The position numbers and the translations under genes were made by a program. 64,000 nucleotides of DNA from Thermoproteota archaeon. GTDB lineage: Archaea; Asgardarchaeota; Jordiarchaeia; Jordiarchaeales; Freyrarchaeaceae. Below the pieces are notes generated by a model. It worked only from the letters and a program-made list of their open reading frames with translations. It ran no database searches and was not told the DNA's origin. Within the stretch, counting starts at the first letter, position 1. The number at the start of each line of letters is the position of its first letter. This document shows positions 33,222 through 34,510 of this stretch, piece after piece. The DNA is taken from contig JAPDJY010000053.1 of NCBI GenBank assembly GCA_029258835.1, forward strand, positions 14,006 to 78,005. The letters are read 5' to 3'.

Positions 33222-34510
33222 ATGGGGATGACTATTTCGGAGAAGATCTTAGCGTCCCACTCGGGAAAGGAGAGGGTTGAGCCGGGTGAGATAGTTAATG
33301 CTAAGGTTGACGTGGCGATGGTCCACGAGATGCTTGGAAACCCGGCGCCTTGACGGGCTGGGCTAAACTGCGCATAGCAGACATCTACGAGGAACTCGGC
33401 GTTGATCGCGTCTGGGATCCGAAGAAGATAGTCGCGTTGATAGACCACTGGACGCCTGCTCCAAGCATAGATGCTGCTGTTATCCATGTAACCTGCAGAA
33501 GGTTCGTTGAAAAGTATGGTGTTGAGAACTGGCTTGACATGAGAGAGGGTATATGCCACGTTGTGCTTCCTGAGAAGGGGTTTGTTAAACCCGGAGACCT
33601 TGTTGTTGGAAGTGATTCCCACACGACGACCTACGGAGCCGTTGGAGCGTTCGCTACGGGAATAGGCGCCACCGACATGGCTATTGTGCTCGCTACGGGT
33701 GAACTCTGGTTTAGGGTTCCGTCAACGGTGAAGTTTAACATTACAGGTAGGCTTCAGCCGCTGGTTATGGGCAAGGACATAATCCTTCACATTATAGGTG
33801 AGATAGGAGTAGATGGGGCGACCTACAAGGCGATGGAGTTCTCGGGCGAGGTTGTGAAGGAGCTCAGCATGGATGGAAGGTTCACTCTCTGCAACATGGC
33901 TGTAGAGGCGGGAGGGAAAGCAGGCATAATAGAGCCGGATGAAAAGACGATAGAGTGGGTTAAGGCAAGGGTCAGCCAGCCGTTCAATCCGGTCATGAAC
34001 GACCCTGACGCAGAATACGAGGAGGTCATAGACGTTGATGTTTCAGGGCTGGAGCCACAGGTGGCTAAGCCGCCAAGCCCCCAGAACACGGTGCCCGTAT
34101 CGGAAGTGGAAGGGACAAAGATAGACCAAGCCTTCGTCGGGTCATGCACTAACGGTCGGCTTGAAGACCTGAGAGCGGCTGCCAAGATACTTAAAGGCAG
34201 GAAGGTCGCAAGAAACGTAAGAGCTATAATAATACCGGCCTCGAAGGAAACCTACCTAGCGGCGATGAGGGAAGGCCTCATAGAAACGTTCTTGGAAGCA
34301 GGGTGCGTAGTCTGTAATCCGACGTGTGGCCCCTGCATAGGCGCCCACCTAGGACTTCTAGCACCAGGGGAAGTTTGCATATCATCATCCAACCGTAACT
34401 TCGTTGGAAGAATGGGAAGCAAGGACGCATGGATCTATCTTGCATCGCCAGCAACGGTAGCTGCATCAGCAGTAACAGGCGAAATAACAGACCCACGTAA
34501 CTTTGTCTAA
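33222..34510 (+). CDS. leuC: 3-isopropylmalate dehydratase/homoaconitase large subunit, interrupted by a 29-nt BHB intron; 419 aa spliced
   Basis: exon 1 [26 protein letters not shown] (33222-33339); exon 2 33369-34510 with [28 protein letters not shown]. Confidence 0.92.
33340..33368 (+). other. BHB-type intron in mRNA (29 nt)
   Basis: outer helix UGC/GCG, central UUGG/CUAA, bulges AA^A and AC^U, inner CCCGGC/GCUGGG; splicing gives [16 protein letters not shown]. Confidence 0.87.

Follow-up and report, generated by a model that had tools for sequence, protein, structure and literature searches.

The 64,000-nt window analyzed here (G000:C6:14006-78005) belongs to an archaeal genome of the Asgard order Jordarchaeales, which comprises 2.72 Mb in 91 contigs and is 95% complete. 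Positions 33222-34510 on the plus strand of this window encode a large subunit of the LeuC/HacA family, called leuC below, and the gene is broken by a 29-nt insert at 33340-33368. This insert, a candidate bulge-helix-bulge (BHB) intron, is the subject of the present report. The part of the gene upstream of the insert, exon 1 (33222-33339), consists of 39 codons and the first base of a methionine codon, which makes the junction a phase-1 junction. Translation from the ATG at 33222 yields a normal LeuC/HacA-type large-subunit N-terminus and then continues through NPAP into a TGA stop (33351-33353) inside the insert; a preliminary description of this sequence had reported the same, and the sequence bears it out. 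A Shine-Dalgarno-like GGAGG, read directly from the sequence, is located at 33208-33212, 9 nt 5′ of this ATG, and is found at equal spacing before exon 1 in nine of nine orthologous loci. Exon 2 (33369-34510) contributes the last two bases of the methionine codon, 379 further codons and a TAA stop, and codes for the aconitase-family catalytic body with its iron-sulfur (Fe-S) cysteines. The insert has a length of 3n + 2, and exon 2 is read in a different frame from exon 1. At 33350-33353 (TTGA) the stop of the exon-1 frame overlaps a TTG of the exon-2 frame, an arrangement that may be coincidence or a fallback start. TTG codons inside the inserts are probably the reason why gene callers begin shortened open reading frames (ORFs) there; all Jordarchaeales orthologues in the protein collection are given as a downstream ORF of only 380-390 amino acids (aa).

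The plus-strand RNA around the insert contains all elements of a BHB motif. The outer helix h is formed by UGC (33331-33333) and GCG (33370-33372), both exonic. The central 4-bp helix H pairs the exonic UUGG (33334-33337) with the intronic CUAA (33363-33366). Next to it are the 5′ bulge AA^A (33338-33340), with the predicted cut between 33339 and 33340, and the 3′ bulge AC^U (33367-33369), with the predicted cut between 33368 and 33369. The intron hairpin h′ consists of 6 bp (CCCGGC at 33341-33346 with GCUGGG at 33357-33362) and a loop at 33347-33356. Two 3-nt bulges on opposite strands thus flank a central 4-bp helix, which is the core arrangement of a BHB, and both flanking helices are present (hBHBh′ form), the outer one having 3 bp including one G-U pair. 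With this short outer helix the motif lies between the strict and the relaxed BHB forms. The complete BHB with two flanking helices that had been drawn in the preliminary description was found element by element. In a 71-nt segment the minimum free energy (MFE) fold includes the central helix, the inner helix and the 5′ bulge, all 3 nt of which are unpaired.

Deletion of 33340-33368 leaves 118 + 1,142 nt, equal to 420 codons that encode a 419-aa protein with no internal stop. The excision joins GGA A|TG CGC, with both cuts made after the second base of the respective bulge. This junction and this protein length had been predicted previously, and the computed frame is indeed open throughout. 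Alignment of the spliced protein to intact homologues of 415-421 aa (60-66% identity) showed that the junction HEMLG-M-RIAD is gapless, with no gap of another position or length that would contradict the intron, and that the intact homologues share the methionine found there. Four of the intact homologues (P0049, P0062, P0065 and P0077) read HEMLGMRV where the spliced product has HEMLGMRI. The methionine codon, which would exist only after ligation, therefore encodes the ancestral residue. The protein collection was also searched for short fragments from spliced transcripts and for the full-length protein (approximately 419 aa); the former gave nothing above 62% identity, the latter nothing above 66%.

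To follow the insert through the order, we used its 11 species genomes, which fall into two families, f1 (the family of the studied genome) and f2. An orthologue is present in nine of the 11 genomes, and in all nine the insert is located between VHEMLG and RIA[DQ]IY. At E <= 1e-150 nothing matched in the remaining two, whose completeness is 92% and 87%. A protein-based metagenome scan gave four Jordarchaeales loci and the other added loci came from a search for encoding contigs; all 11 metagenome or assembly loci added in this way carry the insert at the identical codon. The complete set comprises 21 loci with 15 distinct insert sequences. Exon 1 is found directly 5′ of exon 2 in all orthologues, with amino-acid identities of 79-95%. 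Upstream of leuC lies a leuB-like gene for a beta-decarboxylating dehydrogenase of the Iso_dh family (31875-33017, plus strand); the preliminary description had already noted an adjoining leuB, and the gene is intact. The arrangement with Iso_dh ahead of exon 1 and exon 2 is shared by the orthologous loci, an Aconitase_C small subunit gene coming next in family f2.

The length of the insert is not conserved. It is 29 nt in f1, and 29, 30, 33, 36 or 41 nt in f2. The inserts of 30, 33 and 36 nt preserve the frame and contain one or two stop codons of varying kind (TAG, TAA, TGA), and those of 29 and 41 nt break the frame. Since stops and frames differ among the inserts, excision alone yields one common product, and the same cut rule gives an uninterrupted ORF of 418-423 aa in 20 of the 21 loci. 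Among 201 Asgard genomes outside the order, a homologue (at most 66% identity) was found in 45. Eight aligned loci from these genomes are uninterrupted through the intron site, and the open frames listed have at least 419 aa, bar one that ends at a contig edge. This restricts the intron, among the genomes searched, to Jordarchaeales. One uninterrupted homologue from another Asgard family (L122, G128:C85) has a TAA at the position of Leu343 (IREG*IEIF), unrelated to the intron site, which may be an isolated nonsense codon or an error in sequencing.

Covariation was analyzed for the 14 BHB pairs in an alignment of 15 sequences (A1), with 3′ partners slid by 1-3 columns and 500 shuffles as controls. 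In the true register 96.2% of the pair cells are paired, compared to 20-40% in the slid registers. Both partners change in six pairs, and cells with such changes number 23, compared to 7.0 +/- 1.8 in the shuffles. The covariation score is 0.407; the shuffles gave 0.184, none of the 500 reaching the observed value, and the slid registers gave 0.02-0.13. In all 15 sequences every pair of the central helix is formed (100%), with the combinations UUGG/CUAA, UCGG/CCGA, UCGG/CCGG, UCGG/CUGG, UCGG/CUGA and UUGG/CCGG. In the inner helix five of the seven aligned pairs change on both sides; its contiguous length varies from 3 to 11 bp in the orthologues, and its sequence differs entirely between f1 and f2 with the pairing kept. 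The outer helix UGC/GCG is invariant in all 15 sequences; it is coding and therefore uninformative for covariation. When the local RNA is folded, the MFE structure is the full hBHBh′ in eight of the 15 sequences.

Purifying selection on both exons is strong. For exon 1, comparisons of the studied genome with its relatives gave pN values of 0.03-0.12 at pS values of 0.4-0.97 and, where computable, dN/dS values of 0.03-0.09; synonymous sites are near saturation. Exon 2 is under comparable selection, and dN/dS is below 0.1 for both. With these values exon 1 cannot be regarded as a stranded remnant of 39 codons.

The genome also encodes the enzymes that such an intron would need. Two single-unit EndA homologues were found, both matching PF01974 and 32% identical to one another. 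The first is a paralogue of 190 aa on contig C1 (G000:C1:11942-12514) that has kept the catalytic Tyr, His and Lys. The second, a beta-like subunit with tRNA_int_endo_N and catalytic-type domains, has Ala at the catalytic His position and is located in the window itself at 25569-26078 on the plus strand (the start at 25569 within ORF 25152-26078 is approximate); the leuC intron is located about 7 kb downstream of this non-catalytic EndA gene. This pair suggests an (alpha-beta)2 heterotetramer. RtcB is encoded on contig C1 (607 bits). Endonucleases of the (alpha-beta)2 and epsilon2 types are described as a broad-specificity type that accepts non-canonical substrates (PMC5829648).

Taken together, 33340-33368 is very probably a BHB intron in coding sequence that would be removed by EndA and RtcB before translation. 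The anatomy of the motif, the exact restoration of the ORF, the conservation, the covariation, the purifying selection and the presence of the enzymes are direct observations. Cleavage and ligation themselves, and splicing that is constitutive rather than regulated, are what we infer from them. According to this model, the gene would be transcribed with the intron included. The last nine bases of exon 1 (UGC UUGG AA) and the first four of exon 2 (U GCG) would base-pair with one another and with the intron's 3′ end, so that a 4-bp helix forms between two 3-nt bulges, with the 6-bp intron hairpin closing inside. The predicted two-subunit EndA of the (alpha-beta)2 type would cut past the second base of each bulge and RtcB would join the exons as GGA A|UG CGC, whereby the 29-nt intron would be set free, probably in circular form. 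The 419-aa enzyme would be encoded by the spliced mRNA only; translation of the unspliced mRNA would stop after 43 codons. The gain of the intron would date back at least to the common ancestor shared by both Jordarchaeales families. Since then its codon position would have been fixed, its loop and length would have drifted, and its helices would have been kept via compensatory changes.

Several observations weigh against this interpretation. The fold energy of the 71-nt segment is unexceptional (z = -1.44), and in a 48-nt context the strict BHB reaches -11.4 kcal/mol, while a competing fold is 4.4 kcal/mol better (-15.8 kcal/mol). The outer helix, with only 3 bp, one of them G-U, and no variation, lacks support from covariation. 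The above-chance case for a BHB, as far as the sequences tell, is thus built on the comparison across orthologues and not on fold energy. In one locus, L098, a single Logan contig, the intron is identical to that of L010 and L099, and one G is missing after the 3′ splice site (TGCGC to TCGC, region L098:440-560). This 1-nt deletion would shift the frame of the spliced product; it may be an assembly error or mark a dead allele. Direct RNA evidence was also sought. A search of sequencing runs with the window (runs of any kind) and with L010, the locus of a complete wetland genome (RNA runs), listed no RNA run. Four metatranscriptome-labelled runs examined on L010 gave one contig of 227 nt on exon 2 (L010 2363-2589) and none over the junction (~2632-2667).

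Three other explanations were considered. The first is a split gene, in which the insert would stay in place, an N-terminal peptide of 43 aa would be made separately from a protein of 386 aa started at the TTG at 33350 inside the insert, and the two would assemble. The TTGA overlap of stop and start in the window resembles translational coupling, the f2 inserts have an in-frame TTG in GGGUUGACC, and proteins of 380-390 aa are annotated by gene callers in all these genomes; purifying selection on both parts is compatible with this arrangement as well. However, the start codon is not conserved, since the exon-2 frame of the L004 insert lacks ATG, GTG and TTG alike. The TTGs in the inserts are not preceded by a Shine-Dalgarno-like sequence, whereas exon 1 has its GGAGG, and the TTG of f2 falls within the 3′ strand of helix h′. 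The tails that would be encoded by the inserts (NPAP, SAAH, NQP, NQPSSC) are not conserved. A split gene would also leave unexplained both the covarying BHB and the ancestral HEMLGMR that is recreated by excision. We therefore consider it very unlikely.

Still less probable is translational bypass, in which the ribosome would hop from the GGA before the hairpin to a matching GGA downstream, so that no RNA splicing would be needed. The take-off codon GGA (33336-33338) is indeed followed by a hairpin, as in gene 60 of phage T4, where a short non-coding hairpin gap likewise comes right after a GGA codon. In L005, L007-L011, L017, L095, L097, L100 and L102 a second GGA is present at the 3′ end of the insert (CC-GGA-CUG or CC-GGA-UUG), and landing there would yield a product of the right length, HEMLG-LRIA. 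This second GGA, however, simply results from the BHB, in which the bulge A comes directly after the CCGG strand of the central helix. A landing GGA is missing in the window (CUAAAC) and in L004, L006 and L101 (CCGAAC, CCGAAA, CUGAAA), the take-off codon is not followed by a stop, and the length of the gap ranges from 29 to 41 nt. The pairing of exon 1 with the 3′ end of the insert is kept by compensatory changes that a hop does not need. Splicing predicts Met at the junction, and it is Met, not Leu, that the intact homologues show there. Without a landing codon or a stop past the take-off site in the window, and with exon-intron pairing that covaries, the locus was not grouped with gene 60.

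The third explanation, a pseudogene, an assembly artefact or recoding of the stop as selenocysteine or pyrrolysine, is just as improbable as bypass. Public annotations show a truncated ORF, L098 has its additional 1-nt deletion, and the function could be taken over by the genome's two intact paralogues. Sun et al. 2021 are said to have reported selenocysteine or pyrrolysine for the lineage. On the other hand, the same interruption is present in independent assemblies from many samples and from two families. The low dN/dS of both exons and the complete ORF after excision in all loci but one are not those of a decaying gene. This agrees with the preliminary description, which had argued against decay, and the order-wide conservation with covariation points the same way. 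Altogether, the genome encodes three large subunits (the split one and the two intact paralogues) and three small subunits, of which two adjoin the intact paralogues and one is found alone on contig C15 (G000:C15, region 58308-58460). With three of each, no large subunit is surplus. As to recoding, the stops of the in-frame inserts vary in kind and number, and since the 29-nt insert shifts the frame, read-through of its TGA cannot restore the protein. Read-through by selenocysteine or pyrrolysine was ruled out on the same grounds (a length of 3n + 2 and varying stops), frameshifting was ruled out with the in-frame f2 inserts, and a group I or group II intron or an intein was ruled out with a length of 29 nt, which is far too short.

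The identity of the interrupted enzyme was analyzed with exon 2 alone. It exceeds the curated cut-offs of TIGR01343 hacA_fam (588 bits, cut-off 386), PRK00402 (588 bits, cut-off 385) and TIGR02086 IPMI_arch (538 bits, cut-off 410) and matches Pfam PF00330 (Aconitase) with 359 bits. The equivalog models are not reached by exon 2, which is about 40 residues short (TIGR02083 LEU2: 526, cut-off 611; NF040615 HacA_Meth: 497, cut-off 550). The best solved relative is the large subunit of the isopropylmalate/citramalate isomerase of M. jannaschii (4NQY/4KP1, E 2.8e-144); in the structure matches this enzyme scores 484 bits and the M. jannaschii homoaconitase 411 bits. The cysteines of the 4Fe-4S cluster are found in VGSCTNGR and NPTCGPCIG, which align with GSCTNGR and NPSCSACMG of 4NQY. 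All Fe-S ligands had been said to be present, and the GSCTNG and CGPC cysteines indeed align with those of 4NQY. The name leuC, which also stems from the preliminary description, is to be taken at the level of the LeuC/HacA family: exon 2 scores below the LEU2 and HacA equivalog cut-offs, and three paralogous large subunits are present in the genome. By sequence comparison, leuC is thus to be read as a LeuC/HacA-family large subunit closest to the archaeal isopropylmalate/citramalate isomerase. Among relatives that lack the intron, the nearest (P0046-P0048) are 65-66% identical and have the motif HEVLGIR; their genes adjoin genes for a thiolase, a ChsH2-like protein and a CoA-transferase, and not leuB (L103, JGI contig Ga0209426_1001331). 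The HEMLG/HEVLG subfamily may not everywhere be a leucine-pathway enzyme.

Inserts of the same kind were found in other genes of this genome. The gene for EF-1alpha (C27:28832-28874, minus strand) contains a 43-nt insert that splits the P-loop GHVDHG|KST, and removal restores it. The insert forms a perfect BHB: CGGC pairs with GCCG in the central helix, the bulges read AA^U and AA^G, and the inner stem has 10 bp. In cbf5 (C27:11929-11955, plus strand) an in-frame insert of 27 nt contains a TAA and a TGA; its removal restores GTLD|PKVTG, and it also folds into a perfect BHB (CACU-AG^A, 8-bp stem, GGUG-AA^A). A third insert, of 36 nt, is located in the window at 12508-12543 (minus strand) in a FAD-linked-oxidase-like gene (UCAG-AA^A-GGCAAC...GUUGCC-CUGA-AG^A), and its excision merges two ORFs into an open frame of 493 codons. 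EF-1alpha and cbf5 are expected to be essential and a broken P-loop would be intolerable; mRNA splicing should therefore be obligatory here. As the EF-1alpha insert must be removed from the mRNA, the prior for splicing of leuC is considerably raised.

Further strong candidates, in which a BHB insert restores an ORF, are located at G000:C8:63575-63604(+), C82:1973-2002(-), C8:8772-8796(+) and C1:101311-101342(-). Three of these four junctions recall motifs that we take to be DVYAMGA of a PurM/HypE-like protein, GQTISAPHM of an isoaspartyl methyltransferase and TIGIDF of a small GTPase. For a candidate insert of 16 nt at window positions 37134-37149, a simple test showed no plus-strand frame that, after removal, stays open for over 40 codons both before and after the site. 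Three genome-wide scans for ORF-restoring inserts that fold into a BHB gave equal counts in the true and in the slid registers and are dominated by noise, in which slides of +/-3 are invalid as a control; their strongest matches include leuC and several convincing cases. Because of this noise we give no genome-wide number of introns. The tRNA genes were analyzed as well. ARAGORN found only 23 tRNA genes in this 95% complete genome, 18 of them with intron calls, some of implausible length (up to 708 nt). Such a result is in line with a tRNA gene set that would be heavily interrupted and overlooked by standard tools. In Freyarchaeia (equal to Jordarchaeia in PMC11291895) 92-95% of the tRNA genes are reported to contain introns. 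We think it likely that EndA/RtcB splicing of mRNAs would be genome-wide and obligatory in Jordarchaeales/Freyarchaeia, with order-old BHB introns in tens of genes including those for EF-1alpha, cbf5 and metabolic enzymes.

In the literature searched, the cbf5 intron of Crenarchaeota is the sole BHB intron in a coding sequence (Watanabe et al. 2002 FEBS Lett 510:27; Yoshinari et al. 2006; Yokobori et al. 2009, PMC2738675; so cited in PMC12397907). A 2026 preprint on Asgard introns covers tRNA genes only, and the wetland-Asgard paper covers tRNA introns only. The leuC and the crenarchaeal cbf5 introns are both short BHB introns within protein-coding sequence that are conserved at the level of the order and overlooked by gene callers. 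Cutting by a hetero-oligomeric EndA of the (alpha-beta)2 type, which is predicted for leuC, has been shown for cbf5, where splicing was demonstrated by RT-PCR and in vitro cleavage; for leuC it is deduced. The host genes also differ: leuC codes for a metabolic Fe-S dehydratase and cbf5 for an RNA-modifying enzyme. In addition, the leuC intron belongs to the Asgard phylum (Jordarchaeales) and is one of many in its genome, whereas cbf5 is the lone case in Crenarchaeota. New is a probable BHB mRNA intron in a new, metabolic gene and in a new phylum; the cbf5-type kind is already known.

Compared to the BHB introns of archaeal tRNAs and rRNAs (Marck and Grosjean 2003), the leuC intron has the same geometry (h, 4-bp H, two 3-nt bulges, h′), the same cut past the second bulge base and a similar length. 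As in the canonical tRNA intron at position 37/38, the exonic 5′ strand of H pairs with the 3′ end of the intron. In contrast to these RNAs, the exons of leuC belong to an mRNA, so that codons (Met-Leu-Gly / Met-Arg) constrain the motif's exonic half and the junction must hold the frame. Judged by its sequence, the leuC intron has all testable defining features of an EndA substrate. It also resembles HAC1 and XBP1 in being a very short mRNA intron (26 nt in XBP1) independent of the spliceosome, with a change of frame and RtcB-type joining (established; reviewed in PMC13149111). There, however, the IRE1 nuclease acts on two 7-nt stem-loops and the ligase is RtcB or Trl1, whereas leuC would be cut by EndA at a BHB. 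HAC1/XBP1 splicing is a stress-regulated switch, and leuC has no evolutionary membership in that system.

The particular value of the leuC intron is in its order-wide conservation, its length polymorphism and its clean covariation. If splicing takes place as proposed, public annotation would need systematic correction, and metabolic reconstructions may count such genes as broken or incomplete. The gain and retention of introns in coding sequences would be open to study in a system without a spliceosome. The ratio of unspliced to spliced mRNA could serve to regulate metabolism. Protein-only splicing of mRNA would be routine in close relatives of eukaryotes, and a close archaeal relative of eukaryotes would thus routinely express genes in pieces.

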